Below are positions 30,357 to 59,940 of a stretch of DNA of 64,000 bases, piece after piece (position 1 is the stretch's first letter; each line of letters starts with the position of its first letter). Both the position numbers and the translations under genes were made by a program. Under the pieces are notes generated by a model. That model ran no database searches, was not told the origin of the DNA, and saw nothing but the letters and a program-made list of their open reading frames with translations. Source of the DNA: Nitrosomonadales bacterium (GTDB lineage Bacteria; Pseudomonadota; Gammaproteobacteria; Burkholderiales; SG8-39); contig JAKFDA010000093.1 of assembly GCA_036676355.1 (NCBI GenBank), positions 7,857 through 71,856 on the forward strand. Direction: 5' to 3'.

Positions 30357-30373
30357 TACATTCTCCTCAGTCG

Positions 30374-30389
30374 CGGCATGTCGTTTGCA
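30374..30389 (+). promoter_or_regulatory. candidate sigma-54 promoter CGGCAT-gtcgt-TTGCA (yihY-asmA operon)
   Basis: Exact spacing with both halves near consensus. It lies in the divergent gap once the kinase start is moved to 30356. Confidence 0.6.
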
Positions 30390-30461
30390 GCGCCGGTGCA
30401 TCAAGGTCATGGACGTTCGCTCCTGCGCAACGTGTCGCCATTGCCAACAGCACGTACGCCT

Positions 30462-35973: not shown

Positions 35974-36447
35974 TTACTCAACGAAGGGCTTATCGTGCCC
36001 GGCAATGCGTCCTTTGATAATCGCGCGTAGAAACCAGGCGACACTGGCTGCAAACGCTTCGTCATACCACGCATACATGCCGCTCACGCCGACCACGATG
36101 CCATCGACGCATACGCCTCCGCCCAATACCGTGTCGCCCGATTCGAGCAAATGCGGCGCGCTTGTCGCCAAGCCATAAGTGTCGCGACCGGTACGCCAGG
36201 CCAGCTTGGCCTTGGCACGCGCGTACATGGCGTAATCGGCATCCCACCGCTCGCGGTTGAAACTCTCTTCGTAAAGAATCGCCTGCGTAAAAGCGATCGA
36301 TCCGGGCCGGGCATACGGGTCCATCACGACGACATGGGCACAACCGCTGTCGCCGAAATCCTGTGTATTCACGGCGCGCTCGAACAGCGGCCGAACGCTG
36401 ACCACTGCCTGCAGCGCAGTCTCGCGTGTAATGAGTGGTTGGAACAT
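35974..36447 (-). CDS. hypothetical protein, weak GlcG/HbpS (DUF336)-like features
   Basis: GGGVCVDGIVVGVSG resembles the DUF336 glycine-rich loop. Start moved to M135 (36447) because the candidate -12 box overlaps the upstream ATG at 36486. Confidence 0.45.
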   Translation of the reverse strand: MFQPLITRETALQAVVSVRPLFERAVNTQDFGDSGCAHVVVMDPYARPGSIAFTQAILYEESFNRERWDADYAMYARAKAKLAWRTGRDTYGLATSAPHLLESGDTVLGGGVCVDGIVVGVSGMYAWYDEAFAASVAWFLRAIIKGRIAGHDKPFVE

Positions 36448-38093: not shown

Positions 38094-38234
38094 CGCTATC
38101 TCCTTTAGAACAACCGCTCCGGCGTGCGCAGCCCATGCGGATGGCATCAGGGCGCGTAAGAGCCGCCCGAGCCAGGTAATTGTTACTGAATTTTCAGCCG
38201 AAATGCACCCGAAAATCCTCTCGAGCCCTGCTTA

Positions 38235-38320: not shown

Positions 38321-39178
38321 TCAGCCGTTCACGATCGTGCCGCCATTGGGATGCAACACCTGGCCGGTCATATAAGCCGAGTCGCCGGAGGCGAGAAAGA
38401 TGAAGCTCGGGGCGACCTCGTCGGGTTGGCCCGCATGGCCGAGCGGGACGTCGGCGCCGAATTCGGCAACCTTGTCCGGCGGAAACGTTGAAGGAATGAG
38501 TGGCGTCCAGATCGGTCCGGGCGCGACCGCGTTGACGCGAATACCGCGCTCGGCGACGGCCAGGGCAAGTGAACGCGTGTACGCCACGATCGCACCTTTG
38601 GTGGCGGAGTAGTCAAGCAGCTTGGGATTGCCCTTGTACGCGGTGACCGACGCGGTGTTGATAATGCGCGCGCCGGGGCGCAGATACGGCAGCGCCGCGT
38701 TCACCAGATAGAACATGGCGAAGATGTTGGTCGCGAAGGTGCGCTGCAACTGAATGGCGGCGATATCTTCGGGTCGCTCTTGCGGATGCTGTTCGGCCGC
38801 GTTGTTCACCAGCACGTCAAGTCGGCCAAGCTCACTCACTGCCTTTCCCACCGCAAATCGGCAGTGTTCCTCGTCCGCGATATCGCAAGGGATGAGCAGA
38901 CAACGCCGCCCTTCGCTTTCGATGGCCGCTCGCGTCGCATCGGCATCTTCATGCTCTTCCAGATAGACGATCGCGATATCTGCGCCTTCCTTGGCAAAAC
39001 CGACCGCCACGGCGCGGCCGATCCCGCTGTCCGCGCCGGTGATCAGCGCGACCTGCCCATCGAGTTTGCCGCTGCCGATGTAGCCCTTCATAAAGGACTC
39101 CGTCCGCGGCTGCATCGGCGCTTCGCGTCCGGGCTGTCGATCCTGCTGCTGTGGCGGACGCTGTTGAGTCGGGCTCAT
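38321..39178 (-). CDS. SDR family oxidoreductase, YghA/YhxC general-stress type
   Basis: Gln/Pro-rich leader followed by LDGQVALITGADSGIGRAVA, NNAAEQ and YSATKGA motifs. Confidence 0.85.
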   Translation of the reverse strand: MSPTQQRPPQQQDRQPGREAPMQPRTESFMKGYIGSGKLDGQVALITGADSGIGRAVAVGFAKEGADIAIVYLEEHEDADATRAAIESEGRRCLLIPCDIADEEHCRFAVGKAVSELGRLDVLVNNAAEQHPQERPEDIAAIQLQRTFATNIFAMFYLVNAALPYLRPGARIINTASVTAYKGNPKLLDYSATKGAIVAYTRSLALAVAERGIRVNAVAPGPIWTPLIPSTFPPDKVAEFGADVPLGHAGQPDEVAPSFIFLASGDSAYMTGQVLHPNGGTIVNG

Positions 39179-39210
39179 ACGATACCTTTCATTGAACGCA
39201 TCGAAGTGTG

Positions 39211-39226
39211 AGCAATGCCTATGCCG
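39211..39226 (-). promoter_or_regulatory. candidate sigma-54 promoter CGGCAT-aggca-TTGCT (YghA-like SDR)
   Basis: Exact spacing, 34 nt upstream of the ATG at 39178. Confidence 0.6.
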
Positions 39227-39343: not shown

Positions 39344-39359
39344 CGGCATGCGGCTTGCT
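39344..39359 (+). promoter_or_regulatory. candidate sigma-54 promoter CGGCAT-gcggc-TTGCT (glycan operon)
   Basis: Exact spacing, 42 nt upstream of the ATG at 39400. Confidence 0.6.
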
Positions 39360-39399
39360 GCCTTTCCGGCAGAACAACCTCATCCCGTTTCGATTCCAA

Positions 39400-40677
39400 A
39401 TGAAAATCGCGCTCATCAGCGAGCACGCTTCACCCCTCGCGACGCTAGGCGGTGTCGATAGCGGCGGCCAGAATGTCTACGTCGCACATCTCTCCCGGCA
39501 ACTCGCGCGCAGAGGACACAAGGTCGACGTATTTACCCGATGCGACGATGAGGCGTTGCCCGGCATCGTGCCCTTCGATCGCAGCGTGCGCGTGATACAC
39601 ATTCCCGCAGGACCGCGCCGACACATCGCCAAAGAGCAGCTGCTGCCATACATGCAGGAGTTTTCTCTGCGCATGGCGAATTACTGTTCGGTGCCGACAC
39701 GCCGCTATGACATCGTGCACGCCAATTTCTTCATGTCCGGACTGGTCGGCGCGCGTCTGCAGGAAGAACTCGGCATTCCGCTCGTCATCACTTTTCATGC
39801 GCTCGGCAAGGTGCGCAGGCTGCATCAGCGAGAAGCCGATCGTTTTCCCGCCGCACGCATGGCGATCGAGGAACAGCTCGTACGCCGCGCCGATCGCATC
39901 GTCGCGGAGTGTCCGCAGGATCGCGATGATCTGATCCATCTTTACGACGCCGCGCCCGATAAGATCGATGTGGTCGGCTGCGGCGTGGATATCGACGAGT
40001 TAAGCTCGGTGAGCCGTAGCGCGGCACGTTCGACGCTCGGTCTCGACGACGACGATTTCGTGGTTCTGCAATTGGGGCGGCTCGTTCCGCGCAAGGGCAT
40101 CGACAACGTGATTCGCGCGATCGGCTGTCTTCAGCGCGATCACGGCATTCGCGCGCGACTGCTCGTCGTCGGCGGCGAATCGATCGAACCCGACCCGATA
40201 ATCACGCCCGAGATCGGCCGATTGGCCGCAGTCGCCGACGCCGAAAATGTGCGCGAGCTCGTGACCTTCGTCGGCCAGCGCGCACGGCCCGAACTGCGCA
40301 ACTACTACTCGGCGTCGGACGTATTCATCACGACGCCATGGTACGAACCCTTCGGCATTACGCCGCTTGAATCCATGGCGTGCGGCACACCGGTGATCGG
40401 CGCCGCGGTCGGCGGCATCAAGCACACGGTGATCGACGAGGTCACCGGCTATCTGGTTCCGCCTAAAGACCCCGCCGCAGTGGCGGAACGCCTCGCGCGC
40501 TTCCACCGCAATGCGGAACTCGCGCGCGCATTCGGGCGTGCGGGCATCCGGCATGTGCGCGCCAATTACACATGGGAGCAGATCGCCCGGCAGATGACGG
40601 AAGTCTATGCCTCGACGCTGCGACCGCCGCGCGCCCTCATACATTCTTCTTCCGACGAAAGCGCCGCGACTGTATGA
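39400..40677 (+). CDS. glycosyltransferase family 4 (SPS/MshA-like N-terminal motif)
   Basis: MKIALISEHASPLATLGGVDSGGQNVYVAHLSRQL, with the C-terminal E-x7-E region FITTPWYEPFGITPLESMACGTPVIG. Confidence 0.8.
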   Translation: MKIALISEHASPLATLGGVDSGGQNVYVAHLSRQLARRGHKVDVFTRCDDEALPGIVPFDRSVRVIHIPAGPRRHIAKEQLLPYMQEFSLRMANYCSVPTRRYDIVHANFFMSGLVGARLQEELGIPLVITFHALGKVRRLHQREADRFPAARMAIEEQLVRRADRIVAECPQDRDDLIHLYDAAPDKIDVVGCGVDIDELSSVSRSAARSTLGLDDDDFVVLQLGRLVPRKGIDNVIRAIGCLQRDHGIRARLLVVGGESIEPDPIITPEIGRLAAVADAENVRELVTFVGQRARPELRNYYSASDVFITTPWYEPFGITPLESMACGTPVIGAAVGGIKHTVIDEVTGYLVPPKDPAAVAERLARFHRNAELARAFGRAGIRHVRANYTWEQIARQMTEVYASTLRPPRALIHSSSDESAATV

Positions 40678-41414
40678 AACACTCACTCAAGGAAAAACTT
40701 GCCGTCGTTACCGGCGGCGCACGCGGTCTCGGTGCGGCGTTATGCGAACGACTTGCCGCGGAAGGTTGCAAAGTCGTGGTCGTCGACATGAAGCTCGAAC
40801 TGGCGCAGGCGACCTGTGCCCGTATTCACGACAATGCGCGCGACGACTCCGTCATGGCGTGGGCATATTCGACCGACATCGGCGACGCTGCCCAGGTCGA
40901 AGCAATGGTGCGCGACATCGGCGAACGATACGGTCCCATCGATATCGTGATCAACAACGCCGGCATCGATATCACGTTGCCGATCGATGAATTGACGGTC
41001 GACGAATTCGATCGCGTCGTGCAGACCAATCTGCGCGGACCTTTCCTGCTCTCCAAATACGCGGCGGTGCAAATGCGCGAACGCGGCCGCGGCCACATCG
41101 TCAACATCGCGTCGACCGCATCGAAGCGCGCATGGGCCAACGCTTCCGCGTATCACGCCAGCAAATGGGGCGTGCTCGGCCTGTCACATGCGCTGCATGC
41201 GGAACTGCGCCCGCACGGCATCAAGGTAACCGCTGTCGTGGCTGGCGGCATGCGCACACCTTTCCTGCTCGACCGCTTTCCCGACATCGACCGCAACACA
41301 TTGCAGGAGCCGGCGGATGTTGCCGAAGCGATCGTCGGCATCCTCGGCATCGGCGGATCGACCGTCATCCCGGAACTGATGATCCTGCCGATGCGTGAAA
41401 CCTCCTGGCCATGA
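40674..41414 (+). CDS. SDR family oxidoreductase
   Basis: LAVVTGGARGLGAA, NNAG and YHASKWG motifs. ATGA overlap with the upstream gene. Confidence 0.8.
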   Translation: MKHSLKEKLAVVTGGARGLGAALCERLAAEGCKVVVVDMKLELAQATCARIHDNARDDSVMAWAYSTDIGDAAQVEAMVRDIGERYGPIDIVINNAGIDITLPIDELTVDEFDRVVQTNLRGPFLLSKYAAVQMRERGRGHIVNIASTASKRAWANASAYHASKWGVLGLSHALHAELRPHGIKVTAVVAGGMRTPFLLDRFPDIDRNTLQEPADVAEAIVGILGIGGSTVIPELMILPMRETSWP

Positions 41415-42004
41415 GTACGCAACCGAAGAAGCGACACGCAGTGACTAAAGCGGCCGTATTCATCGACAAGGACGGTACGTTGATACCGGACGTACCGTAT
41501 AACGTCGATCCGGCGAAAATTCGTCTGCGCCCCAAGGCCGGTATGGCGCTGCGGCGCCTGCAGAATGCCGGCTACGAACTGGTGCTGATTAGCAACCAGG
41601 CCGGCGTCGCGCTCGGCCGCTTCGACGAAAGCGCGCTGGACCCGGTCTGGTCGAAATTGCGTGCGCAACTTGCGGGCGAGCGCGTCGACCTGTCGGCGAT
41701 CTATTACTGCCCGCATCATCCCGCCGGCGAAGTACCGCAATACGCCGCCGAGTGCGAATGCCGCAAACCGCGGCCTGGCCTGCTGCAGCGCGCCGCGCAC
41801 GAACGCCATATCGACCTTCAGCGCTCCTGGATGCTGGGCGACATTCTCGATGATGTGGAAGCGGGACGGCGTGCAGGTTGTCGCACCGTGCTGCTCGATG
41901 TCGGCTCCGAGACCGAGTGGCGCGAATCCGCGTTGCGCACGCCCGATTTCATGGCGCGCGATCTCGATGCCGCGTCGCATTACATCCTCGCGAGCACGCC
42001 ATGA
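41411..42004 (+). CDS. HAD-IIIA phosphatase, GmhB (heptose 1,7-bisphosphate phosphatase)-like
   Basis: AVFIDKDGTL, SNQAGVA, the Zn-finger-like CPHHP...CECRKP motif, and GDILDDVEAG. ATGA overlaps on both sides. Confidence 0.7.
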   Translation: MSTQPKKRHAVTKAAVFIDKDGTLIPDVPYNVDPAKIRLRPKAGMALRRLQNAGYELVLISNQAGVALGRFDESALDPVWSKLRAQLAGERVDLSAIYYCPHHPAGEVPQYAAECECRKPRPGLLQRAAHERHIDLQRSWMLGDILDDVEAGRRAGCRTVLLDVGSETEWRESALRTPDFMARDLDAASHYILASTP

Positions 42005-43170
42005 TGCGGAGCCACTCGCTGCCGAGCGCGGTTCACGCCGATACCGCATTGTGGGCGCGCGCAAAGCGGGTGCTGTGCGTGCGACTCGATGCGCTCGGCG
42101 ATGTGCTGATGACCACGCCGGCGATGCACGCCCTCAAGCACGCCAAGCCCGAACGCGAAATCACGCTGCTGACCTCGCCGAGCGGTGCGGCTGCCGCAAA
42201 TCATCTGGCCGATGTTGATCATGTGCTGATCCACGATGCGCCGTGGATGAAACACGAGCGCGCACCGGCCGTCGCGGCGATGCAGGTTCTCATCGAAACC
42301 CTGCGCGCCGCGCATTTCGACGCGGCAGTCATCTTTACCGTCTACAGTCAGAGTGCACTGCCCGCCGCCATGCTGTGCTGGATGGCCGGCATCCCGCTTC
42401 GGCTTGCACATGCGCGCGAGAATCCCTATCACCTTTTGACCGATTGGGAACCGGAGCGCGAGCCGACGGTTCCGGTGCGCCATGAAGTGCAGCGCCAGCT
42501 CGACCTGGTGGCCAGCATCGGCGCACATACGATCGATACGCGCATGCGGTTCTCGCTTTCGGCGCACGACCAGCAGAGCGCGATGCGAACGCTCGCCGCG
42601 GCGGGGGTGCGCATCGATCGTGAATGGATCGTCGTACACCCGGGCGCCAGTGCCTCATCGCGCCGCTATCCAACCGAACATTACGCCCTGGCCCTGCAAC
42701 GCCTCGCATTGCACGACAACCTTCAGATGCTGATCACCGGCGCCGCCGGGGAAGGCGCGCTCGTGCAGGCGTTGGCTTCGCGCGTGCCCGGCGCGGCGTC
42801 ACTGGCCGGCGCATTGAGTTTGGGCGAGTTGGCGTGGGTGATTTCGCGCGCCACGCTACTCATCTCGAACAATACCGCGCCGGTACATCTTGCCGCGGCG
42901 CTCGGCACGCCCGTGGTCGATCTGTATGCGCTGACCAATCCGCAGCATACGCCGTGGCAGATAACCAGCCGCGTGCTCTCGCACGATGTGCCGTGCCGCT
43001 ACTGCTATCGCAGCGTGTGTGTCGAGGGTCATCACGCGTGTTTGCGCGGCGTACCGCCCGACGCGGTTGCGCAGGCGGCGATCGAATTGCTGCGGGAGAC
43101 GCGCCAACCGTCAACCCGTGAAGCGCATTCCTTCGCACAAGCAACGGAGTCATCTTTGTGTACACGCTAG
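42001..43170 (+). CDS. glycosyltransferase family 9 (heptosyltransferase-like)
   Basis: VLCVRLDALGDVLMTTPAMHAL and the C-terminal LISNNTAPVHLAAALGTPVVDLY motif. Confidence 0.8.
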   Translation: MMRSHSLPSAVHADTALWARAKRVLCVRLDALGDVLMTTPAMHALKHAKPEREITLLTSPSGAAAANHLADVDHVLIHDAPWMKHERAPAVAAMQVLIETLRAAHFDAAVIFTVYSQSALPAAMLCWMAGIPLRLAHARENPYHLLTDWEPEREPTVPVRHEVQRQLDLVASIGAHTIDTRMRFSLSAHDQQSAMRTLAAAGVRIDREWIVVHPGASASSRRYPTEHYALALQRLALHDNLQMLITGAAGEGALVQALASRVPGAASLAGALSLGELAWVISRATLLISNNTAPVHLAAALGTPVVDLYALTNPQHTPWQITSRVLSHDVPCRYCYRSVCVEGHHACLRGVPPDAVAQAAIELLRETRQPSTREAHSFAQATESSLCTR

Positions 43171-44930
43171 GGCTCAACGCCGCCTTTCACGACAGCGCCG
43201 CCTGTCTGGTGCACGACGGCATGCTGATCGCCGCCGCTGAGGAAGAGCGCTTCAGTCGCATCAAACACGCCAAACGACCGGTGCCGTTCAGTGTGTGGGA
43301 ATTACCCTACAACGCGATCGATTACTGTCTGCGTGAAGCGAACATCACGTTGGCCGATGTCGACCACGTCGCCTACTCGCTCGACCCCGCGCTGCTGCCG
43401 AATCGGCCCGAGCGCGACGCGCCCATCGTGCTGCCGCAACATCCGCCCGCCGCGCGCAGCGTCGACCGCAAGCCCTGGGATGATCTGTTTTATCTGTATG
43501 TCGTCAACGCGCCGCGCCAATTGAGCGGCGGTGCCCCGCATCATCTGCGCGGGCGCATCAACCCCGGCAAGCCGCTGCGTTACGAATGGCATTTCGTCGA
43601 ACACCATCTCGCTCATGAGTCGAGCGCGTTTCTCGCATCCCCTTACGAATCGTGCGCCGTGCTCACGCTCGACGGACGCGGCGAGCAGGCGACCACGACT
43701 TACGGCGTGTGGCGCGACGGCGAGTTGCGCCGGCTGAAGCAGATCGATGTGCCGCACTCGCTCGGTCTGCTGTACGAAGACGTGACGCGCTATCTGGGCT
43801 TCCTGCACTCGTCCGACGAGTACAAGGTCATGGCGCTCGCATCCTACGGCACGCCGCGCCATCTCGATGAGTTCCGCGACATCGTGCAGGTCGACGACGA
43901 TGGCGGCTATCGCATCAACGGCCCCGACCTGGAAAATCGCTTCGGTTCCGCGCGCGAGCACAGCGCTCCGTTCGATGCACGGCACTTCGATATCGCCGCA
44001 TCGCTGCAGAAGGTGCTGGAGCAAAGCGCGCTCAGGCTCGCGGCATGGCTGCGCGAGGCGAGCGGCGAAAAACATCTGGCCATGGCGGGCGGCGTCGCGC
44101 TCAACTGCGTGATGAACGCGCGCATTCGCGACAGCGGTCTGTACGACGACGTGTGGGTCCAGCCGGCCTCGGGCGACGCCGGCACCGCGCTGGGCGCCGC
44201 GCTATGGATCGACTATCGCCGTCGCGGCGAACGAAGCTGGCGGATGGATCACGCGTACTACGGTCCCGGCTACGGCGACGACGAGATCGAGCAACTGCTC
44301 GAATGGAGCAAGATCCCCTATCGGCGACTCGACAACGTGGCGGAAGAAACCGCCAAACTGCTTGCGCAGAATTACATCATCGGCTGGTTTCAGGGACGCA
44401 TGGAATTCGGTCCGCGCGCGCTCGGTGCGCGCTCGATCCTCGCCTCGCCGATCGACCCCGACATGAAAGGTCGCCTCAACGAACTGAAGGATCGCGAGGA
44501 TTTCCGCCCGGTCGCGCCTGTGGTGCTGGAAGAAAAACTCGACGAATGGTTCGTGCGCAAGGACGGCATCACGGGCAAGGCACCGTTCATGCTGTTCGTG
44601 TACGGCGTGCGAGAGGATATCGCCACACGCATTCCGGCCGCGGTGCACGTAGACCGCACCGCACGCGTACAGACCGTCGATGCGCACGCCAATCCGCGCT
44701 ATCGCGAACTGCTCGCGGCATTCGAGCGCCGCACCGGTGTGCCGGTGCTGGTCAATACCTCATTCAACAGCCGCGGGCAGCCGATCGTGTGTTCGCCGCG
44801 CGATGCCATCGAAGCGTTCTACAGCACGCCGCTCGATGCGCTGGTGATCGGCTCCTTCATGGTCACCAAGAATGTCACTGCGCAGGGTGACCCATTGCTC
44901 GCCGCGTCGGTGGCCGAGGCCATCGTATGA
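43158..44930 (+). CDS. carbamoyltransferase (NodU/CmcH family)
   Basis: GTG start. (M)YTLGLNAAFHDSAACLV..AAEEERFSRIKH, with the C-terminal VNTSFNSRGQPIV. Confidence 0.85.
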   Translation: MYTLGLNAAFHDSAACLVHDGMLIAAAEEERFSRIKHAKRPVPFSVWELPYNAIDYCLREANITLADVDHVAYSLDPALLPNRPERDAPIVLPQHPPAARSVDRKPWDDLFYLYVVNAPRQLSGGAPHHLRGRINPGKPLRYEWHFVEHHLAHESSAFLASPYESCAVLTLDGRGEQATTTYGVWRDGELRRLKQIDVPHSLGLLYEDVTRYLGFLHSSDEYKVMALASYGTPRHLDEFRDIVQVDDDGGYRINGPDLENRFGSAREHSAPFDARHFDIAASLQKVLEQSALRLAAWLREASGEKHLAMAGGVALNCVMNARIRDSGLYDDVWVQPASGDAGTALGAALWIDYRRRGERSWRMDHAYYGPGYGDDEIEQLLEWSKIPYRRLDNVAEETAKLLAQNYIIGWFQGRMEFGPRALGARSILASPIDPDMKGRLNELKDREDFRPVAPVVLEEKLDEWFVRKDGITGKAPFMLFVYGVREDIATRIPAAVHVDRTARVQTVDAHANPRYRELLAAFERRTGVPVLVNTSFNSRGQPIVCSPRDAIEAFYSTPLDALVIGSFMVTKNVTAQGDPLLAASVAEAIV

Positions 44931-45928
44931 ACACATCACTGCAACAGGCGGGCGCGCCGCTGGTGTCCGTGGTCGTCCCGACGTGCGGAAGACCGACGCT
45001 GCTGCGACGCTGCCTGCTCGCCCTGCGACGTCAGCGTATGCCGGGCAACAGCTACGAGATCATCGTTGCCGACGACGGTCACTCGGACGCGACGCAGCGC
45101 CTCGCGGAACAACTCGATGGTGCGGATCCCGAAGGGCCGCGCGTGCGCTACGTCCGCTCGCCTGGTTGCAAAGGCGGCCCCGCCGGTGCGCGCAACGCCG
45201 GCTGGCGCGCGGCGCATGCGCCGGTGATCGCCTTCACCGACGACGATACCGTGCCCGCACGCGACTGGCTGGACGAAGGAATGCACGCGCTGCAACCGGG
45301 CGTTGCCGCCGCCACCGGCCGTACGCGCGTGCCGCTGCCGAGTGCCCCGACCGATTGGCAGCGCAACACCGCAGGACTCGAACGCGGCGAGTTCATCACC
45401 GCCAACTGTTTCGTACGGCGCGAGGTGCTGGAGGAACTGGACGGTTTCGACGAACGCTATCGTCGTCCGTGGCGCGAGGATTCCGACCTGCATTTCGCCA
45501 TGCTGGAGCGAGGCATGGCGATCGCGCATGCGCCGCGCGCGCTGGTGCTTCATCCCGCACGCGAGGCTCCCTGGGGAGTCAGCGCGAAGATTCAGCAAAA
45601 CGTTTACTTCGACGCGCTGCTGTTCAGGAAACATCCGCTGTTATACCGCGCGCGCATTTCTCCCGGCCCGCCGCTACGCTACTATTTCGCCGTCTCCGCG
45701 CTCGGCCTCGCCGCGATCGGCCTGCTCCGCGGCGCCCCGCTGCTGGCGCTCGGCGGGGGAACCGCCTGGCTCGCATGGACGGTCGGTTTCGCCGCCTATC
45801 GATTGCGCCACACTTCGCACGATCCGCGCCATATCGCCGAAATGCTTTACACCTCGGCGGTCATTCCGCCGCTAGCGGTGTATTGGCGCATCGCCGGCGC
45901 GCTGCGTTTCAAGGTCGCCTTCGCATGA
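44927..45928 (+). CDS. glycosyltransferase family 2 with C-terminal TM segments
   Basis: VSVVVPTCGRP, a DDG..D motif and FTDDD (DxD). Confidence 0.8.
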   Translation: MNTSLQQAGAPLVSVVVPTCGRPTLLRRCLLALRRQRMPGNSYEIIVADDGHSDATQRLAEQLDGADPEGPRVRYVRSPGCKGGPAGARNAGWRAAHAPVIAFTDDDTVPARDWLDEGMHALQPGVAAATGRTRVPLPSAPTDWQRNTAGLERGEFITANCFVRREVLEELDGFDERYRRPWREDSDLHFAMLERGMAIAHAPRALVLHPAREAPWGVSAKIQQNVYFDALLFRKHPLLYRARISPGPPLRYYFAVSALGLAAIGLLRGAPLLALGGGTAWLAWTVGFAAYRLRHTSHDPRHIAEMLYTSAVIPPLAVYWRIAGALRFKVAFA

Positions 45929-46956
45929 ACGCGCGCCCCGATCTGCTCGCCGATATTGCGACGACCGTACCACTGCCGCGCTTTGTGCAGATCGAGCCGG
46001 TCGGGCAATGCAATCTCCGCTGCGCCATGTGCACGATTCAGTATCGCGCCGATGCACCGCATGACGGCTCACCCGCGCTGCTCTCGTTCGACGATTTCAC
46101 CCGACTGCTGGCGCAGTTCGATGATGTCGATGCGCTACACCTGCAGGGCCTCGGCGAACCGCTCATGAATCCGGACTTCTTTCGCATGGTGCGCCATGCG
46201 GTGGACCGCGGCTTCAAGGTTTCCACCAACAGCAATCTCACCCTGCTCAGCGAAGCGCGCGCGCAGGCTTGCGTGGACAGCGGCCTCGACACGTTGCACA
46301 TCTCGCTCGACGGCGCCAGCGCAGCGGTGTACGAATCGATCCGCCATGGGGCCTCCTTCGCCAAGGTCATGCGTAATCTCGAGCGGATCGTCGCCGCAAA
46401 AGAGCGATTGCAGAGCGCGACACCTCATCTGCGCATCGTGACGGTAGTGATGCGCAAGAACCTGGACGAACTCGCCGATATCGTCACGCTGGCTTTCACG
46501 CATGGCGTCGACTCGGTTTTTGTGCAGCATCTAAGCCATGATTTCCAGGAAAGCTCGTTACCCGAAGCGTACATCCCGATGCGCAGTTTCGTGCAAAACG
46601 AATCGCTGCTGAACGAAGACCGGGCGCGCATCCGCACGTGTTTCGGGCACGCGCGCGAGCGCGCCGCCGCGCTCGGCGTGCAATTGCGACTGCCGGCGCT
46701 CGAAAGCGAACGTCGCAATTCCACGCCATGCGGTTGCGACTGGCCCTGGCGCGGCGCCTACCTGACCTTTCGCGGCGAAGCGTTGCCATGCTGCATGGTC
46801 AGCACGCCGGAACGTTTCCGACTGGGCAATATGCTGCAGCGCGGCGTCAGCGAGGTGTGGAACGACATGCCTTATCGGCAACTGCGCGAAGCGCTGGAGT
46901 CCGGCCACCCGCCCGATATCTGCCGTTCCTGTTCTCTCTATCGGCATACCTTCTGA
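45925..46956 (+). CDS. radical SAM / SPASM-domain protein
   Basis: CNLRCAMC (CxxxCxxC) cluster, plus the Cys-rich C-terminus CGCDWPW..LPCCMV..CRSCSLY. Confidence 0.8.
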   Translation: MNARPDLLADIATTVPLPRFVQIEPVGQCNLRCAMCTIQYRADAPHDGSPALLSFDDFTRLLAQFDDVDALHLQGLGEPLMNPDFFRMVRHAVDRGFKVSTNSNLTLLSEARAQACVDSGLDTLHISLDGASAAVYESIRHGASFAKVMRNLERIVAAKERLQSATPHLRIVTVVMRKNLDELADIVTLAFTHGVDSVFVQHLSHDFQESSLPEAYIPMRSFVQNESLLNEDRARIRTCFGHARERAAALGVQLRLPALESERRNSTPCGCDWPWRGAYLTFRGEALPCCMVSTPERFRLGNMLQRGVSEVWNDMPYRQLREALESGHPPDICRSCSLYRHTF

Positions 46957-46958
46957 GC

Positions 46959-48032
46959 ATGGCGCACGCACATCCGGATCGCGTTTCGCCAACACCGCAG
47001 CGCATTGCGGTGTTTCGCGCCTTGCAGATCGGCGACATGCTGGTCGTCGTGCCGGCCTTGCGCGCATTGCGTCGTGCCTATCCCCGCGCGCACATCACGC
47101 TTATCGGTTTACCGTGGGCGCGCGACTTCGTCGAACGCTTCGGCTATTGCGACGACCTGCTCGAATTCCCCGGCTACCCCGGCCTGCCCGAGTGCGAACC
47201 CGACACGCGGGCGCTGGCGGATTTTTACACTGCGGCACGCGCCCGGCGCTTCGATCTCGCCTTGCAGATGCACGGCAGCGGGCGCTTGACCAACGCGCTC
47301 GTACTCGAACTGGGCGCGCAGGCCGTTACGGGCTTCCGCCCCGCCGAAGCCCGCGCGCCGTCGCACTTCCTGCCATGGCAAACCCATCAGTCCGAACTGC
47401 GCCGTTATCTCGACCTGATGAGCGCGATCGGCGTACCGCCGCAGGGCGAGCATCTCGAATTCCCCGTCCGTCCGGCAGAACAACACGAAGCAGCCGAATT
47501 GCTGAAGCGCCATTTTCCGCTTGCTGCCGCGCCCTACATCTGCCTGCACGCCGGTGCGCGTCTGCCGTCGCGCCGCTGGCCGGCCGAACGTTTCGCCGCC
47601 GTAGCGGATGCGCTTGCGCGCCACGGCTACACCATTGTGCTGACCGGCGCGCCTGAAGAAGCCGCTGTCGGCATTCAAGTGTGCGAAGGGATGCGTCGAG
47701 CCGCGGTCAACCTGATCGGCAAAACCAGCCTGGGGGCGTTTGCCGCCTTGGTGCGCGCAGCGCGCCTGCTGATCTGCAACGATACCAGCGCCTCGCATGT
47801 GGCCGCCGCGACGCGCACGCCGAGTGTCGTAATTTCTTCCGCCGCGGATGTGGCGCGCTGGCGCCCGCTGGATCAAAGCCGTCATCGCGTGCTTTGGCAT
47901 GACACCGACTGTCGCCCTTGCGATCACGCCATCTGCCCGACCCGACACGAATGCGCACTGGGCGTCGAGGCCAAATCCGTCATCGCGATGGCCCGCGATT
48001 TGCTGAATGTGGGCGAACGCGACGCGGCGTAA
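46959..48032 (+). CDS. glycosyltransferase family 9 (second heptosyltransferase-like)
   Basis: IAVFRALQIGDMLVVVPALRAL and LLICNDTSASHVAAATRTPSVV. Confidence 0.8.
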   Translation: MAHAHPDRVSPTPQRIAVFRALQIGDMLVVVPALRALRRAYPRAHITLIGLPWARDFVERFGYCDDLLEFPGYPGLPECEPDTRALADFYTAARARRFDLALQMHGSGRLTNALVLELGAQAVTGFRPAEARAPSHFLPWQTHQSELRRYLDLMSAIGVPPQGEHLEFPVRPAEQHEAAELLKRHFPLAAAPYICLHAGARLPSRRWPAERFAAVADALARHGYTIVLTGAPEEAAVGIQVCEGMRRAAVNLIGKTSLGAFAALVRAARLLICNDTSASHVAAATRTPSVVISSAADVARWRPLDQSRHRVLWHDTDCRPCDHAICPTRHECALGVEAKSVIAMARDLLNVGERDAA

Positions 48033-48090
48033 GAGGAGAAGCTTGAACGAGCGAAGGCCTTCAAATTTTTTGTCAACGAGATTTTGAAAC

Positions 48091-49035
48091 GTGAAACGTC
48101 TCCGCATCCTCACCTGGCATGTGCACGGTAATTACCTCTATTACCTCACTCAGGTTCCGCACGATTTTTTCGTGCTGACGGATGCACGGCGCTCGCCGGG
48201 TTATGCCGGTCGCGCCGGCACGCTGCCGTGGGGGCCGAACGTGATCGAAGTGCCGGTGGCGCAGGTGCGCGAAACGCCGTTCGACTGCGTGCTGTATCAA
48301 TCGCGCCGGGGCTGGGAGCGCGACCGCCTCGATCTGCTGTCCGAAGCGCAGCGCAAACTGCCGCGCATTTTTCTGGAACACGATCCGCCGCAGGCGCATC
48401 CGACCGACACGCGGCACTTCGTCGACGATCCGGGCGCGATGCTGGTTCATGTCACGGCTTTCAACGCTTTGATGTGGGACAGCGGCCGCACACCCACGAC
48501 CGTCATCGAGCACGGCGTCAAGCCGCTCAGCACGGCGCGCTACAGCGGTGAACTCGAACGGGGCATCGTCGTTGTGAACAATCTGCGCAAACGCGGTCGT
48601 CGCCTCGGCGCCGACGTGTTTCACCGGGTGCGCGAACAGGTACCTCTCGATCTGGTCGGCATGGACGCCGAAAGCGCCGGCGGATCCGGGGAAATCGGCA
48701 ACGTCGCGCTGACCGCGCATATCGCGCGCTACCGTTTTTTTTTCAACCCGATCCGCTGGACGAGCCTGGGGCTGGCGGTCATCGAAGCGATGATGGTGGG
48801 GCTACCCATTGTCGGGCTGGCTACCACCGAGATGAGCACTGTCGTGCGCAACGGCGAGTCGGGCTGGGTGGATACGCGCATCGAAGTACTGGTGGAACGC
48901 ATGCAGGCGCTGTTGGCCGACCCGGCCGAAGCGCGCCGGCTCGGCGAAAACGCGCGCCGCGACGCGCTCGAGCGCTTCAATATCGATCGCTTCGCGGCCG
49001 AGTGGTCACGCCTCTTGCTAGAGGTCTGCACATGA
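48091..49035 (+). CDS. glycosyltransferase (GT1/GT4-like, short)
   Basis: GTG start. C-terminal GT-B motif FFFNPIRWTSLGLAVIEAMMVGLPIVG..ESGW. Confidence 0.7.
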   Translation: MKRLRILTWHVHGNYLYYLTQVPHDFFVLTDARRSPGYAGRAGTLPWGPNVIEVPVAQVRETPFDCVLYQSRRGWERDRLDLLSEAQRKLPRIFLEHDPPQAHPTDTRHFVDDPGAMLVHVTAFNALMWDSGRTPTTVIEHGVKPLSTARYSGELERGIVVVNNLRKRGRRLGADVFHRVREQVPLDLVGMDAESAGGSGEIGNVALTAHIARYRFFFNPIRWTSLGLAVIEAMMVGLPIVGLATTEMSTVVRNGESGWVDTRIEVLVERMQALLADPAEARRLGENARRDALERFNIDRFAAEWSRLLLEVCT

Positions 49036-49129
49036 CCGGGGTGGGATTCGATGCATCTGGCCTCTGCGGTTTTTCCGGGGGTTTTTACGAGGCAGTCCCC
49101 TTAAACGCCCGATCGAAGGAAGCGCCGCC

Positions 49130-50329
49130 ATGCTGAACAGCTTTTTCATCGCCGGCTTTCCCGGCACGACCCGCGTGCCGCGCAGCGGCCGCCGGATCGA
49201 GCAGGCGGAAATTTGCGGCCACCAGCGCTTTTACGCGCAGGACTACGTCCGTGCCAGAAAACTCGGCTTGCAGGTCGCGCGCGAGTCGGCGCAATGGCCG
49301 GCAATCGAGCGTGTTGCGGGACACTACGATTTTTCCTTTGTGCGGCGTCGCATCCACTGCGCGCGCGCGCAAGGCATTCAACTGATCTGGACCCTGCTCG
49401 ACGGCGGCTGGCCGTCGGACCTGGACGTCATGCGACCGGTATTCGTGCAGCGTTTCGCCGCCTACGCACGTGCCTTCGCGAGACTGTTACGCGATCAGGA
49501 GGTCAAGGATCCGGTCGTCGTGCCGATTAACGAAATCGGTCCGCTCGCGCGCGCGGGTGGCGAACTGGCGCATGCCTTTCCGTTTCTGGAGGAGCGCGGC
49601 CTTGAATTGCGCTGCCAGCTCGTGCGCGCGTCGGTCGCGGCGATCGATGCGCTGCGCGAGGTCATCCCGGAAATTCGCATCATGCACGTCGAACCGATGT
49701 TTCACGTCGCGCCGCATCCGTTCCACCCGGAGGACAGCGACGCGGCCGAATCGATGCGCCGCGAACAATATGCGGTGTTCGACATGCTGAGCGGCCGCAT
49801 CTGGCCGCAACTCGGCGGACGCGAGCATCATCTCGATGTGCTCGGTGTCAGCCACTACCTCGCCGGTCAGTATTACTACGCTGGCCCAAAACATCCGGGC
49901 AAGATGATCAACCCGCAAGCCGCGGAATGGCGCCGCCTGAGCGACATGCTGGCCGAAGTCGGACGGCGTTACACCTGCCCGTTGCTGCTTGCCGCCACCG
50001 GCCATGACGGCGCCGGACGCGCCGCATGGCTGCGCTACGTCTGCCGCGAGGTGCAGCATGCGACTGCGCGAGGCATCGCGGTGAAAGGGGTGTGCATGCA
50101 GCCGATCGTCGACTGCACCGCACCGCAATTCGAAGCGCGCAGCGCGAGCGGCCTATGGGGCGCCGCCGACGAGGAAGGCGAACGCAGTGTCGATATGTGG
50201 CTCGCCAAGGAACTGCGCGAACAGCAACGCGCCTTCGAGCGCATGAGCAGCGTGTCGGGCATGAACGCGACCGAACTGGACGTCGCCGAACGCGCGCGCA
50301 TCGCCAGCAACCGGGCGCTCGACGCATGA
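49130..50329 (+). CDS. TIM-barrel protein resembling glycoside hydrolase family 1 / clan GH-A
   Basis: INEIGP resembles the acid/base NEP motif. At the expected nucleophile position I read [10 protein letters not shown] (no Glu). gaaggaag RBS is present. Confidence 0.45.
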
Positions 50330-51366
50330 GGCGTCGCACGCGTCAACGCGTGTTGGTGACCGGCGGCGCCGGCTTTCTCGGCTCGCACCTGTGCGATCGA
50401 CTGCTCGCGCAGGGCGATGAAGTGCTGTGCGTCGATAACTTCTACACCGGCGATCGCGACAACATCGCGCACCTGCTGCGCCATACGCGCTTCGAACTGA
50501 TGCGCCACGACATCACTTTTCCGCTGTACGTCGAGGTCGACCGCATCTATAACCTCGCCTGCCCGGCATCACCGATTCACTACCAGACCGATCCGGTGCA
50601 GACCCTGAAAACCTGCATCCACGGCGCAATCAACATGCTCGGGCTGGCCAAGCGCCTGGGTATACCGATCCTGCAGGCTTCGACCAGCGAGGTCTATGGC
50701 GACCCGACGGAGCATCCGCAATTCGAAGGCTATTGGGGACACGTGAATCCGACCGGACCACGCGCCTGTTACGACGAAGGAAAACGCTGCGCCGAAACGC
50801 TGTTCTTCGACTACCATCGCCAGCATCGCGTGCCGGTGAAAATCGCGCGCATCTTCAATACCTATGGTCCGCGCATGGCCGACGACGATGGCCGCGTCGT
50901 ATCGAATTTCATCATGCAGGCGTTACGCGGCGAGCCGATCACGCTTTACGGCGACGGCGCGCAAACGCGCTCCTTCTGCTATGTGGACGATCTCGTCGAC
51001 GGACTGATACGGCTGATGAACACCGAGAACGAGTTCATCGGTCCGGTCAATTTCGGCAATCCGGCCGAAACAACGGTGCACCAACTTGCAGAACGCATCA
51101 TTGCCCTTACCGAGTCGACCTCCGCGATCGAATATCGTCCTTTACCGACCGATGATCCGGTACGGCGTTGCCCCGATATCGGGCTTGCTCAGACCAGACT
51201 CGGATGGTCACCGCAGATCGAACTGGAAGAAGGTTTGAAACAAACCATCGGTTACTTCTGCGCTGCGCTCGAAATCGATGTCCCGGCACAATGCGTCGCA
51301 CATCTGTCGCCGCCGGATTCAATACCGCGCCGATTGGCGGGCGCATCGGCCATGCCCGATTTCTGA
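50326..51366 (+). CDS. UDP-glucuronate decarboxylase (UDP-xylose synthase)
   Basis: [89 protein letters not shown]. Confidence 0.9.
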
Positions 51367-51400: not shown

Positions 51401-52501
51401 TTATTGCCGCAACGGCAGGCGCACGTTGAACTGACTGCCTTTGCCCGGTCCGTCACTGCGCGCCTGCACAATGCCGTTGTGCATGGTCACGAATTCGCGC
51501 ACCAGCGCGAGCCCGATGCCCAGGCCGCCTTTGGCGACGGCCCCGTCCGCTTGTGTAAAGAGTTCGAATATCCGCGGCAGCGCCTCGGGGTCGATCCCGC
51601 ATCCGGTGTCTACGATCTTGACGACGGCTTCCGCGCCCTCCACGGTGGCTTCGACTGTTATCTGCCCACCGTCCGGGGTGAACTTCGTGGCGTTCTGGAG
51701 CAGATTGACAAACACCTGATGCAACCGGTCGATGTCGCACAGGACCGGAATGGGAGCCTCGAGCAATATCGTTTTAAGCATCTGTCGTTTTTGTCCGGCC
51801 GATTCAGCCACTGTTGCGACAGCCAGATCCACCACACCGCGCAGGTCGACTTCGCGCATGTTCAGTGCGACCTTGCCGGTTTCCACGCGGGTAACGTCGA
51901 GCAGGTCGTCCACCAGCCGTTTGATGAAGTCGATCTGACGCTGCATGATCTTGATCGGGAAGAGCAGATCGGCATCGCCATGCGTCTTTATGCGCACGAT
52001 CTCCAGCGCGTTCGACAGCGGCGAGATCGTATTGCGCACTTCATGGCCCAGCGTTCCGATAAAGCCGCTACGCTCCTTTTCGGCGCGCCCGCATATCGTT
52101 GCCCGATTACGCAGCGCTTCGAGTTGCTGCTTCAACTCGGTGCGATCTTCGAGGATCTTGCAGTAGCCCGTTATCTCGCCTTGCGCGCTTGTCAGTTCGA
52201 CCAGGCATCCCATCGCCCAGAAGCGAGTGCCGTCCGCGCGCAGCATCCAGCGATCGTCTTCCGATGATTTACGTGCATTGGCCGCGTCGATTTCGTAGCG
52301 CGGGATGCCGCGCTCGACATCCTCGGGAACGAACAGCAAATCCATCTGATGACCGATTACATCGACCGCCTCGTATCCAAACAGGGACGAAGCCTTGGCA
52401 TTCAACCACTGGATCTTTCTGTTTGCGTCAAGCAGGATGATGGCGTGCTGCGGTGTCTGCGCCGCAAACAACACCATCAGCGCCGTTGCTTCCATGCCCA
52501 T
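51401..52501 (-). CDS. cytoplasmic PAS-domain sensor histidine kinase
   Basis: One PAS domain, H-box LGHEVRNTISPL, and N/G1/G2 boxes (LLQNATKFT, DTGCGI, GGLGIGLALV). Confidence 0.85.
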   Translation of the reverse strand: MGMEATALMVLFAAQTPQHAIILLDANRKIQWLNAKASSLFGYEAVDVIGHQMDLLFVPEDVERGIPRYEIDAANARKSSEDDRWMLRADGTRFWAMGCLVELTSAQGEITGYCKILEDRTELKQQLEALRNRATICGRAEKERSGFIGTLGHEVRNTISPLSNALEIVRIKTHGDADLLFPIKIMQRQIDFIKRLVDDLLDVTRVETGKVALNMREVDLRGVVDLAVATVAESAGQKRQMLKTILLEAPIPVLCDIDRLHQVFVNLLQNATKFTPDGGQITVEATVEGAEAVVKIVDTGCGIDPEALPRIFELFTQADGAVAKGGLGIGLALVREFVTMHNGIVQARSDGPGKGSQFNVRLPLRQ

Positions 52502-52541: not shown

Positions 52542-53300
52542 CTAGAGCATCGGCCGTGTCATTACCCGCGCTTCCTCCAGGTTCATCGCGGCAGTTGCTT
52601 GAATCTGGTGACGCCGCACGCGACGCTGACCCATCGTGCCGGTCAGACCGCCCAGAATGCCGGCGATCAATGACAGCAGTAACGCGAGGGTCAAGCCGCC
52701 GGTGGCCATGCCGACCCGATCAGCCGCGCTCTCCATGCCGGCCTGCGCCTGCGGCGTGGGCTCGCCGCTCTGCGCGACGGAGGACGCCTGATTCATGATG
52801 TTGCGGATCTGCTCGTCGGACAGCCCGAGATTGCGCAGCGTCTGCGCCACATCGCCGCGATCCGCGTTCTGCGGATTCTGCTGCATCGACTGCGGAATCG
52901 CCTGACTCAGCATCGGGCGAAGCTGACCGAACAGCCCTGAGGTGGCAGCGCTCAATACCGTGCTGGCGAGGAGCGCATACAGCAGGGTCGAAGCACCCCA
53001 CGTCACCGCACCATGCAACGCACCGTCGCCCTTGCGCCGCAAGCCGGACGAACGCGATGCCACGTAACCGCCGACGAACGCGGCGATCAACATGCTGACC
53101 CCGCTCCAGATCGCGGCGCTTGCGCTCATCTGCCGGGCGGTGTCACTACCCGGCTCCACAACCAGTCCGCCGACTGCGACGCCGGCAAGCATGAGAAACA
53201 GTTGCAGGGCGATACCGACGGCAAGCCCGGCGAAAATCGCCTGCCAGGAAATCGGGCGGAAATACATCCGCCGCGCGCCGCTGGGGAATTCGACTGCCAT
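52542..53300 (-). CDS. hypothetical membrane protein (4-5 TM with a central Gln-rich loop)
   Basis: Hydrophobic segments flank a polar loop SQAIPQSMQQNPQNADRGD. Start taken at MAVEFP (aggaac 6 nt upstream). Confidence 0.5.
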   Translation of the reverse strand: MAVEFPSGARRMYFRPISWQAIFAGLAVGIALQLFLMLAGVAVGGLVVEPGSDTARQMSASAAIWSGVSMLIAAFVGGYVASRSSGLRRKGDGALHGAVTWGASTLLYALLASTVLSAATSGLFGQLRPMLSQAIPQSMQQNPQNADRGDVAQTLRNLGLSDEQIRNIMNQASSVAQSGEPTPQAQAGMESAADRVGMATGGLTLALLLSLIAGILGGLTGTMGQRRVRRHQIQATAAMNLEEARVMTRPML

Positions 53301-54394: not shown

Positions 54395-54431
54395 CGTGTC
54401 CCTCGGCGGACTGACCGCCGGAGCGCCCGGA

Positions 54432-59921: not shown

Positions 59922-59940
59922 GCGCCTGCCCCTGCCGCGC

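Follow-up and report, generated by a model that had tools for sequence, protein, structure and literature searches.

Family 9 glycosyltransferases (GT9) are normally heptosyltransferases of the lipopolysaccharide (LPS) core or protein heptosyltransferases. Textbooks treat the GT9 heptosyltransferases and the ADP-heptose pathway as LPS-core functions, and both are also studied as innate-immunity triggers and drug targets. In the core of P. aeruginosa, the HepII residue is carbamoylated. Outside LPS, ADP-heptose serves heptose-containing natural products of Gram-positive bacteria, e.g., septacidin and hygromycin B. A family 4 glycosyltransferase (GT4) paired with a phosphatase follows the logic of the sugar-phosphate synthase/phosphatase pathways for osmolytes. 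Aminoglycoside and nucleoside pathways combine MshA-like GT4 enzymes, BtrN/BlsE-type radical SAM enzymes, TobZ-type carbamoyltransferases, and sometimes ADP-heptose. Here we analyze an eleven-gene operon in a 64,000-nucleotide stretch of a Nitrosomonadales bacterium (GenBank assembly GCA_036676355.1, contig JAKFDA010000093.1, positions 7,857 to 71,856), hereafter called the window. Judged from its sequence, the cluster would be partly SPS/SPP- or MshA-like in its priming (SPS and SPP, sucrose-phosphate synthase and phosphatase), partly inner-core-like in its heptosylation and carbamoylation, and partly aminoglycoside-type in its tailoring, and it appears to belong to none of these systems. With even confidence, we propose that it encodes a self-contained, sigma-54-controlled stress pathway for a carbamoylated, heptose- and xylose-containing oligosaccharide or glycoconjugate, which would be made in the cytoplasm with an acceptor other than lipid A-core. 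This pathway would be widespread and horizontally shared, and the stress regulon would be of the osmotic, desiccation, or stationary-phase type.

The eleven genes lie in one direction on the plus strand at 39400-51366. The promoter element 5′ of them begins at 39344; this position starts the element and not a gene, and the first ATG is at 39400. The first gene (39400-40677) encodes GT4a, an SPS/MshA-like retaining glycosyltransferase with Pfam GT4/GT1 domains and a DSGGQNVYV motif. It is followed by a classical short-chain dehydrogenase/reductase (SDR; 40674-41414; adh_short in Pfam, 190 bits), a HAD-IIIA phosphatase of the GmhB/HisB-N type (HAD; 41411-42004), recognized by NCBIfam and by its DxDGT and CPH..CECRKP Zn-loop motifs, and a first family 9 (heptosyl)transferase, GT9a (42001-43170; PF01075, 108.8 bits). 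The central part encodes an O-carbamoyltransferase of the NodU/CmcH/TobZ family (CmT; 43158-44930, GTG start) with Carbam_trans_N and _C domains, a soluble family 2 glycosyltransferase (GT2; 44927-45928; PF00535), and a radical SAM enzyme with a C-terminal SPASM/twitch-type cluster domain (rSAM; 45925-46956; Radical_SAM and SPASM in Pfam). The last four genes encode a second family 9 (heptosyl)transferase, GT9b (46959-48032, ATG start at 46959; PF01075, 121 bits), a GT-B glycosyltransferase in which only the C-terminal GT1-type domain is detectable (GT4b; 48091-49035; Glycos_transf_1, 42 bits), a GH1-fold TIM-barrel protein (49130-50329) seen in an AlphaFold model and missed by Pfam, and a UDP-glucuronate decarboxylase, i.e., UDP-xylose synthase (UXS; 50326-51366; 407.7 bits to human UXS1, PDB 4gll). 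No transmembrane helix was found in any of the eleven proteins.

The genes are tightly joined. Six junctions are ATGA overlaps (GT4a/SDR, SDR/HAD, HAD/GT9a, CmT/GT2, GT2/rSAM, and TIM-barrel/UXS), GT9a and CmT overlap by 13 nt, identically so in the relative L082, and the gaps before GT9b, GT4b, and the TIM-barrel gene are 2, 58, and 94 nt. A sequence-only reading of this DNA had given the same single-strand order, families, and close junctions, all of which held up in Pfam, NCBIfam, and PDB searches and in fold comparison. It had also seen no gene for Wzx/Wzy/Wzz, ABC export, an initiating phosphoglycosyl transferase, WaaA, or lipid A. Searching most coding-signature open reading frames (ORFs) of the 64 kb with Pfam, we likewise found no WaaA, Lpx, Wzx/Wzy/Wzz, ABC-2, or phosphoglycosyl transferase. 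At the GC content of the window (0.59-0.66), long shadow ORFs are frequent, and we therefore called genes by frame-specific GC and domain matches; in the high-GC loci of relatives, the ORF calls come from a simple coding-signature filter. A 694-aa ORF at 44872-46956 in the mechanical listing is the rSAM frame extended back across GT2, and we rejected it as a gene. The operon bears no compositional sign of foreign origin (GC of 0.60-0.66 versus 0.59-0.65 elsewhere in the window), and the 64 kb hold no regulatory RNAs or tRNAs.

Scanning one genome per species with an rSAM alignment, we obtained 352 relatives among 185,579 species and analyzed the best 80 loci. Later loci were added through exact-protein look-ups, giving about 90 independent loci overall. 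Seeding with rSAM over-represents the variants that contain it. Single-linkage clustering of stop-to-stop ORFs merged the high-GC shadow ORFs into one component, and we used the clean components. The gene set and its order recur in these ~90 loci of Betaproteobacteria, Cyanobacteriota, Chloroflexota, Planctomycetota, and Gemmatimonadota, which answers the call of the sequence-only reading for a synteny search on the GT9-CmT-GT2-rSAM-GT9 core. The nearest named relative is a Burkholderiales metagenome-assembled genome, with 85% identity in rSAM. CmT-GT2-rSAM is present in nearly all rSAM-seeded loci of at least 15 kb. In Betaproteobacteria, Planctomycetota, Gemmatimonadota, and some of the Cyanobacteriota and Chloroflexota, this core comes with the GT4a-(SDR)-HAD-GT9a module and with GT9b/GT4b. 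Across phyla, CmT keeps 58-79% and rSAM 52-64% identity, and GT4b is 49-90% identical in relatives from four phyla. Isolates carry the cluster (Ktedonosporobacter rubrisoli, Thermosporothrix hazakensis, Tundrisphaera sp. TA3, Floridaenema, Pantanalinema, and several Noviherbaspirillum), and so mis-binning cannot explain the spread; Chloroflexia genomes are among the carriers too. Full-text searches of the literature found no description of the cluster. What appears to be new is its composition, acceptor logic, and phylogenetic range; the enzyme families themselves are known.

The first three genes form the proposed primer module. The closest solved structures to GT4a are Tll1590 of Thermosynechococcus (236 bits), which we take to be a sucrose-phosphate synthase, and MshA of C. 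glutamicum (216 bits), whereas glycolipid synthases gave only 47-83 bits. GT4a shares the GGQ(N)VYV motif with SPS and MshA, and its HAD partner is adjacent or fused, as in SPS-SPP fusions. However, it scores below the NCBIfam equivalog cutoffs of both families (300.7 versus 462.5 for MshA and 140 versus 576 for sucrose-phosphate synthase), and it has F and A in place of Y110 and T134 of MshA. All 124 of 124 GT4a orthologues carry K/F/A/R at MshA positions 78/110/134/154, which are presumably phosphate contacts (a literature search gave no confirmation of this role), and the GGQN motif is invariant. Two of the four residues, K78 and R154, are basic and would agree with a phosphorylated acceptor. 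From the alignment, this invariant pattern marks the predicted acceptor specificity of GT4a as distinct. The phosphatase also departs from the SPS/SPP model, being of the GmhB/HisB-N type (HAD-IIIA, with Zn-loop) and not an SPP-type HAD, and six further enzymes that build or tailor the glycan come after the pair in the cluster.

GmhA makes heptose-7-phosphate, and the GmhB-type HAD family removes the heptose 7-phosphate. In the window, HAD stands one gene downstream of GT4a, connected through ATGA overlaps, and the SDR of the relatives is always located between the two. HAD scored 119.8 bits with the subfamily-domain model TIGR01656, above its cutoff, and 137.6 bits with the GmhB equivalog PRK08942, below the cutoff of 178. 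GT4a and HAD are fused in Gemmataceae and other lineages, and P0304, P0317, P0318, and P0324 are such fusion proteins; the fused HAD part is 58% identical to the HAD of the window. GT4a-GmhA fusions exist as well. Among 21 betaproteobacterial loci, HAD is found in 16, HldE in one, and GmhA in none. The retention of HAD without GmhA and HldE suggests that it has a non-redundant job. The SPS/MshA affinity of GT4a, both types of fusion, and the HAD retention lead us to order GmhA, GT4a, and HAD as consecutive steps. We rate a synthase/phosphatase step by GT4a and HAD at slightly less than an even chance. The sugar-phosphate synthase/phosphatase logic invoked by the sequence-only reading is thus favored by the affinity of GT4a and by its fusions to HAD.

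The heptose part compares with the LPS inner core assembled by WaaC/WaaF/WaaQ. As there, two GT9s with the catalytic Asp motif, a GT4, and a CmT are united in one operon with a GmhB-type phosphatase. GT9a shows LGDVL near the N terminus and NNTAPVHLAAA in the C-terminal part, GT9b shows IGDML and NDTSASHVAAA, and both retain the N-terminal catalytic-Asp motif of heptosyltransferases. All scores are nevertheless under the curated NCBIfam cutoffs, 128.3 bits versus 134.6 for GT9a with the HepII model and 97.8 versus 170.2 for GT9b with its best heptosyltransferase model. The PDB matches of GT9a are WaaF (47 bits) and WaaC (34 bits), and both GT9s are distant relatives of these enzymes. Unlike an inner-core locus, the operon is without WaaA, Lpx, and WaaL, includes a radical SAM enzyme, GT2, and UXS, and has the marks of sigma-54/stress regulation described below.

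Many loci of Cyanobacteriota, Chloroflexota, and Planctomycetota bring their own ADP-heptose genes, GmhA (fused to GT4a) and HldE. The fused GmhA domain exceeds its equivalog cutoff (211 versus 209.45 bits in L032), as does the adenylyltransferase domain II of HldE (199.7 versus 181.5 in L069), and in these heptose-supplying loci a PfkB kinase or a full HldE is located between HAD and GT9a. GmhA and HldE are in the cluster in relatives only; the window has neither. The cluster-borne genes imply that heptose is a building block, that the GT9s are heptosyltransferases, and that the pathway works independently of an LPS acceptor. Chloroflexota, including Ktedonobacteria, are not known to make LPS, and cyanobacterial LPS is not known to contain heptose. 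Comparing 80 loci all-against-all and inspecting the Pfam tables of the later loci, we found no lipid A, Kdo, ligase, or O-antigen family that recurs by the cluster. Thus, its presence in the Chloroflexota isolates Ktedonosporobacter and Thermosporothrix, in cyanobacteria, and in Planctomycetota agrees with the earlier claim that this is no classical core, O-antigen, or exopolysaccharide locus, and the constant neighborhood of lipid A/Kdo or O-antigen export genes that would have spoken against that claim was not seen. Septacidin and hygromycin B-type clusters also have GmhA, HldE, and GmhB in a non-LPS setting, in organisms without LPS heptose, but the downstream enzymes differ, and the present cluster has no nucleoside or aminocyclitol genes, spans five phyla, and lies in a stress regulon as far as its sites and neighbors tell.

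For the tailoring enzymes, the nearest solved relatives are antibiotic enzymes. CmT resembles NovN (333 bits), GdmN (295 bits), and TobZ (285 bits). The rSAM has a CX3CX2C motif at C29/33/36 and invariant cysteines C116, C271, C289, C290, C333, and C336. The C271-x17/18-C289/C290-x42-C333-x2-C336 spacing resembles that of the twitch cluster of BtrN. Its model (pLDDT 87.5) gave BlsE as the best fold match (TM-score 0.67/0.70), followed by SkfB, DesII, SuiB, anSME, and BtrN, a set that spans sugar-acting enzymes and peptide maturases. By sequence, PqqE was the best PDB match, along with BlsE, BtrN, and DesII. In spite of the likeness to BlsE/DesII/BtrN, the identity to any solved rSAM is 16-23%, and C116 and C289/C290 are extra invariant cysteines. 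The rSAM core starts around residue 20, and no N-terminal extension able to hold a RiPP recognition element (RRE) precedes it (RiPP, ribosomally synthesized and post-translationally modified peptide). We propose from these model comparisons that rSAM is a sugar-modifying tailoring enzyme. The best NCBIfam match of GT2 is MftF-like (120 bits versus a cutoff of 280), and its PDB matches are weak only.

The TIM-barrel protein has no Pfam match, and its model (pLDDT 89.8) aligned with GH1 beta-glucosidases in Foldseek (TM-score ~0.73-0.75). It belongs to a family of 88 proteins with an NE/ETG catalytic pair. The acid/base pair N134-E135 is kept, and the nucleophile position is alanine (A289, in AATG) in the window protein and three aligned operon-linked relatives, compared with glutamate in 19 of 26 aligned family members; a sister clade lacks both catalytic residues. 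The nucleophile-less protein may serve in binding or in non-hydrolytic catalysis. Its gene is accessory and restricted to the closest relatives and one planctomycete (L002, L003/L082, and L077). UXS is confined to Betaproteobacteria, where 14 of the 21 loci have it.

A sigma-54 −24/−12 element, CGGCAT-N5-TTGCT, lies at 39344-39359 (+), 41 nt 5′ of the first ATG. On the plus strand of the operon region we saw no sigma-70-like promoter, and terminators are not in excess. In 15 related loci, most of them from Betaproteobacteria, a site of the form GG-N10-GC/TTGCW precedes the GT4a orthologue by 50-100 nt, and matching upstream elements are additionally present in L082, L084, L086, and L088 (Azoarcus BH72). 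The background for sites of the quality of that at 39344 is ~1 per 10 kb of strand in related loci. Aligning the upstream leaders, we find the −24/−12 element as the sole conserved block. Noviherbaspirillum has the cluster divided among three transcription units: GT4a-SDR-HAD-GT9a; GT2-rSAM-GT4b with a 165-aa protein; and CmT-GT9b-UXS. Each is preceded by sigma-54 sites, in 13 to 17 loci for the GT4a and GT2 units and in eight for the CmT unit; two fully annotated Noviherbaspirillum loci confirm the sites before GT4a and before GT2. A possible internal site of the window operon, TGGCCC-N5-TTGCT at 47989-48004 (+; score 10/11), is ~100 nt 5′ of GT4b and has an equivalent at L082:12026, 96 nt before the GT4b of that locus.

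A fitting activator is close by. An NtrC-type sigma-54-dependent response regulator (36702-38147, minus strand; Response_reg, Sigma54_activat, and HTH_8) lies 1.2 kb upstream of the operon. Its orthologues (60-89% identity) adjoin the cluster in L003/L082, L004, L010, and L016, and a bacterial enhancer-binding protein likewise stands beside it in Azoarcus BH72 and L094. This regulator probably activates the operon. A PAS histidine kinase (51401-52501, minus strand; PAS, HisKA, and HATPase_c) is convergent with the operon end and may be the sensor; because it is not conserved beside the cluster in other loci, its link to the operon is weak. PAS hybrid kinases are also encoded near the operon at 26997-30491 and 60372-61979. 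With conserved −24/−12 sites and a flanking NtrC-type activator, the sigma-54 control first suspected from the letters stands at the level of sequence, and the operon is predicted to be a member of a sigma-54 stress regulon.

The surroundings of the operon are consistent with this prediction. Divergent from it, a general-stress SDR of the YghA/YdaD type (38321-39226 on the minus strand including its site, ATG at 39178; PRK06701, 414 bits versus a cutoff of 413) has its own sigma-54-like site, CGGCAT-N5-TTGCT at 39211-39226 (−), 48 nt 5′ of the ATG. Sigma-54-like sites in the window are located at 25367(+), 30374(+), 39226(−), 47989(+), 53442(−), and 56168(+). The genes preceded by similar sites are those of the stress SDR, a membrane protein (52728-53300), a PRC-barrel protein (ATG at 56224), a small ORF (25416), and GT4b. 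A stretch from 22800 to 60500 encodes two hemerythrins, BrkB/YihY, the YghA/YdaD-type SDR, the membrane protein, DUF4142, two PRC-barrel proteins, and MscS, and from its genes and the sites before many of them, this island looks like a sigma-54 general-stress regulon. Here and in relatives, the cluster neighbors are hemerythrin, DUF4142, PRC-barrel, MscS, BON, DUF892, Hsp20, and trehalase/glycogen genes. Stress-type neighbors in both the window and its relatives thereby lend support to the stress control that had been surmised for the operon.

A 156-aa protein of weak HbpS/GlcG likeness (35980-36447, minus strand; Pfam HbpS-like, E = 3.7e-4) has homologues by tblastn in 25 loci, all betaproteobacterial and with the cluster. 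In Noviherbaspirillum, the homologue is directly 3′ of GT4b, and the one in L082 carries a sigma-54-like site of its own. A trehalase-like GH15 protein at 19825-22014 (+) scored 332 bits to archaeal TreH1, under the cutoff, and an enzyme like GDE/mannosylglycerate hydrolase (L080 3999-6278) adjoins the Ktedonosporobacter cluster. The GH15 protein and the GDE-like enzyme are possible catabolic partners of a stress sugar.

In the pathway that we propose, GT4a would couple an NDP-hexose to a phosphorylated sugar, most likely the heptose-7-phosphate made by GmhA, and the GmhB-type HAD would remove the primer phosphate in the SPS/SPP style. The SDR would act on the acceptor or the primer. GT9a and GT9b, clear in family, would add heptose from ADP-heptose to a predicted acceptor, and GT2 and GT4b would add further sugars, including xylose through the operon's UXS. 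CmT, a TobZ/NovN-type enzyme, would O-carbamoylate a hydroxyl. The BlsE/DesII/BtrN-like rSAM might catalyze a radical oxidation, decarboxylation, or epimerization of a sugar, and the nucleophile-less GH1-like protein might bind or remodel the product. The evidence so far is in line with the product imagined in the sequence-only reading, a cytoplasmic, carbamoylated, pentose/heptose-containing glycoconjugate under stress control, though the product itself is deduced. With a soluble machinery and no operon-linked exporter in this organism, the product may remain in solution inside the cell.

Several points weigh against this pathway. Every substrate in it is deduced, and so is its product. Six or more transferases plus tailoring are far more complex than any compatible-solute pathway known to us. 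The two substitutions in GT4a, Y110F and T134A, alter two of the four presumed MshA phosphate-contact positions, both invariantly. GmhA, HldE, and GmhB form the classical ADP-heptose set, so HAD may be simply GmhB, and the GT4a fusions may reflect pathway clustering and not a synthase/phosphatase pair. The acceptors of the GT9 enzymes characterized to date are lipid-anchored or are proteins. The rSAM is missing in Azoarcus olearius BH72, L092, and L094, and BH72 lacks GT9b too; the existence of these variants means that the product differs within the family. Lastly, MsbA-like ABC exporters lie inside the cluster in Noviherbaspirillum, L092, Gemmataceae L090, L093, and L094, and point to an exported or lipid-linked product in those lineages.

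Owing to these recurrent exporters, the strongest rival is an exported or membrane-anchored glycoconjugate; we consider it unlikely but worth serious weight. Here the enzymes would assemble, on the inner side of the membrane, either an oligosaccharide or a glycolipid rich in heptose (anchored to diacylglycerol, a phospholipid, or a polyprenyl), and an MsbA/NdvA-type ABC exporter would carry it to the envelope or periplasm, in the way of core-lipid A or cyclic glucans. Of the 21 betaproteobacterial loci, 11 (Noviherbaspirillum) have exporters with ABC_membrane and ABC_tran domains in or next to the cluster, and cluster-linked MsbA-like ones were mapped at L084 6972-8810, L086 6910-8724, L092 5648-7456, L090 17428-21253, and L093 14456-18033. 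Those of Noviherbaspirillum and L092 are 59% identical to each other. Among models, these exporters score highest with MsbA, at 421 bits, and with the glucan exporter, at 372 bits, in both cases under cutoff. The latter recalls cyclic beta-glucans and osmoregulated periplasmic glucans exported by NdvA/ChvA, which are likewise stress-related oligosaccharides of cytoplasmic assembly; unlike them, the cluster has no glucan synthase, uses heptose, xylose, and carbamate blocks, and in the window has no exporter. The known GT9 enzymes, like many of GT4, work on lipid acceptors as peripheral membrane proteins, which also suits this rival, as does a GT4 gene followed by a PAP2 phosphatase gene at 58698-60444 (+), just after MscS and 7 kb downstream of the operon. 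On the other side, a cluster-linked exporter is absent from the window and its closest relatives (L082, L004, and L006), the recurrent companions of the cluster include neither an initiating phosphoglycosyl transferase nor a lipid-synthesis gene, and GT4a is nearer to soluble sugar-phosphate enzymes than to glycolipid synthases by the bit scores given above. The absence of export noted earlier from the letters therefore stands for the window and fails for the family, several lineages of which keep ABC exporters in the cluster.

The sole ABC exporter of the window (23448-25340) is 14 kb away from the operon and 26% identical to the cluster-linked exporters, as opposed to 59% between the latter, and we ruled it out as the missing exporter. 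The GT4 of the GT4-PAP2 pair is weakly similar to GlcNAc-phosphatidylglycerol and glucosyl-diacylglycerol synthases, and a GT4 is in the equivalent position in L082, a relative with 76% identity, from 19934. This could be a glycolipid pair with a relation to the acceptor of the operon. In L092, a PIG-L (MshB-type) deacetylase and an extra GT2 accompany the exporter, a hint of a GlcNAc-derived residue.

Less probable still is a conditional remodeling of the LPS inner core, in which the GT9s, GT4s, and CmT would build or decorate the heptose region of Kdo-lipid A under stress. The GT9a score comes near the cutoff of the heptosyltransferase II model, a CmT and a GT4 beside GT9 genes recall the P. 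aeruginosa core cluster, and UXS could provide a core pentose. This idea is disfavored by the conservation of the cluster in LPS-less Chloroflexota isolates and by its own GmhA/HldE in many loci of three phyla, although for this organism, of which 64 kb were available, it keeps some probability. No waaA, lpx, or O-antigen gene lies beside the cluster in the examined loci or in the 64-kb window, and the fusions and SPS/MshA affinity of GT4a do not suit core assembly.

We think it very improbable that the cluster makes an antibiotic-like pseudo-oligosaccharide, a natural product in the manner of aminoglycoside or nucleoside antibiotics. The nearest solved relatives of its tailoring enzymes do come from antibiotic pathways (NovN, GdmN, and TobZ; BlsE, DesII, and BtrN), the patchy cross-phylum distribution suggests horizontal transfer, and one variant is accompanied by the PIG-L deacetylase. 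But we saw no cyclitol synthase, aminotransferase, or resistance gene in the cluster, and most loci show no obvious dedicated efflux. It is also embedded among stress-protection genes and seemingly co-regulated with them through sigma-54, and the conservation of rSAM and CmT across phyla fits a physiological product better than a diversifying antibiotic.

Protein or peptide glycosylation, whether GT9 protein O-heptosylation or a mycofactocin-like rSAM peptide glycosylated by an MftF-like GT2, is the least credible of all: it has in its favor the MftF match of GT2, the PqqE, SkfB, and SuiB matches of rSAM, and a faint TibC-type match of GT9b (E = 3.7e-4), while the MftF score and a TibC score far under the cutoff of 200 fall short, no MftA, B, D, or E homologues were found, the junction gaps (2, 58, and 94 nt) are too small for a precursor ORF, no non-enzyme ORF of at least 70 aa is conserved across phyla (shorter peptide ORFs were not screened), and the rSAM has no RRE/PqqD-like N-terminal domain. 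A RiPP/mycofactocin system was rejected on the missing precursor ORF and RRE and on model scores (MftC, 81 versus a cutoff of 265, and MftF as above). We also rejected anti-phage defense, a thought prompted by a Pfam 'GT4-conflict' match, since PADLOC gave only a generic rSAM-core match (pVip, 60 bits) and nothing for the nine other proteins scanned (UXS not included).

Returning to the self-contained stress pathway, we can specify it further in a more tentative way, which we find less likely than not. The products might be unrecognized stress-protective, non-reducing heptose oligosaccharides, a 'heptose analogue of sucrose or trehalose' made through GmhA, the SPS-like GT4a, and the GmhB-like phosphatase in turn, extended by the GT9s, and decorated by rSAM and CmT; the pathway would have spread horizontally among soil and mat bacteria from at least five phyla. 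If this tentative reading is true, GT9 heptosyltransferases would have a second, ancient role that is independent of lipid A. The cluster suggests a heptose glycan or solute, as yet unexplored, that is likely to help cells survive osmotic stress or desiccation. Azoarcus olearius BH72 and the Noviherbaspirillum isolates are tractable carriers of versions of the cluster, in which the chemistry of the proposed new sugar-acting radical SAM subfamily could be defined.

The versions vary between lineages. The reduced cluster of L088/L089 (Azoarcus olearius BH72 and DQS-4), without rSAM and GT9b, is at ~1.976-1.997 Mb of AM406670.1, flanked by a sigma-54 activator, a PAS hybrid kinase, BrkB, a BON protein, a glycogen-synthase-like gene, glucokinase, and a MalQ/amylase fusion. 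In the cyanobacterial loci L032 and L020, a DUF1622 membrane protein is inserted between GT2 and rSAM (9472-9990 in each), and cyanobacterial versions are enlarged by genes for a class I methyltransferase and another, small GT2 (L032 12376-14047). Among 12 Chloroflexota loci, 11 have this extra GT2 and three the methyltransferase.

Two further features of the window are recorded here. A type IB topoisomerase, an enzyme uncommon in bacteria, is encoded at 53312-54589 on the minus strand, between DUF4142 and the conserved membrane protein, and the sigma-54-like site of the membrane protein falls within the 3′ end of the topoisomerase gene. A VKOR domain fused to SPW repeats (10249-11706, minus strand) lies beside cytochrome oxidase genes (12897-19695) and NAD-salvage genes (4583-6529).

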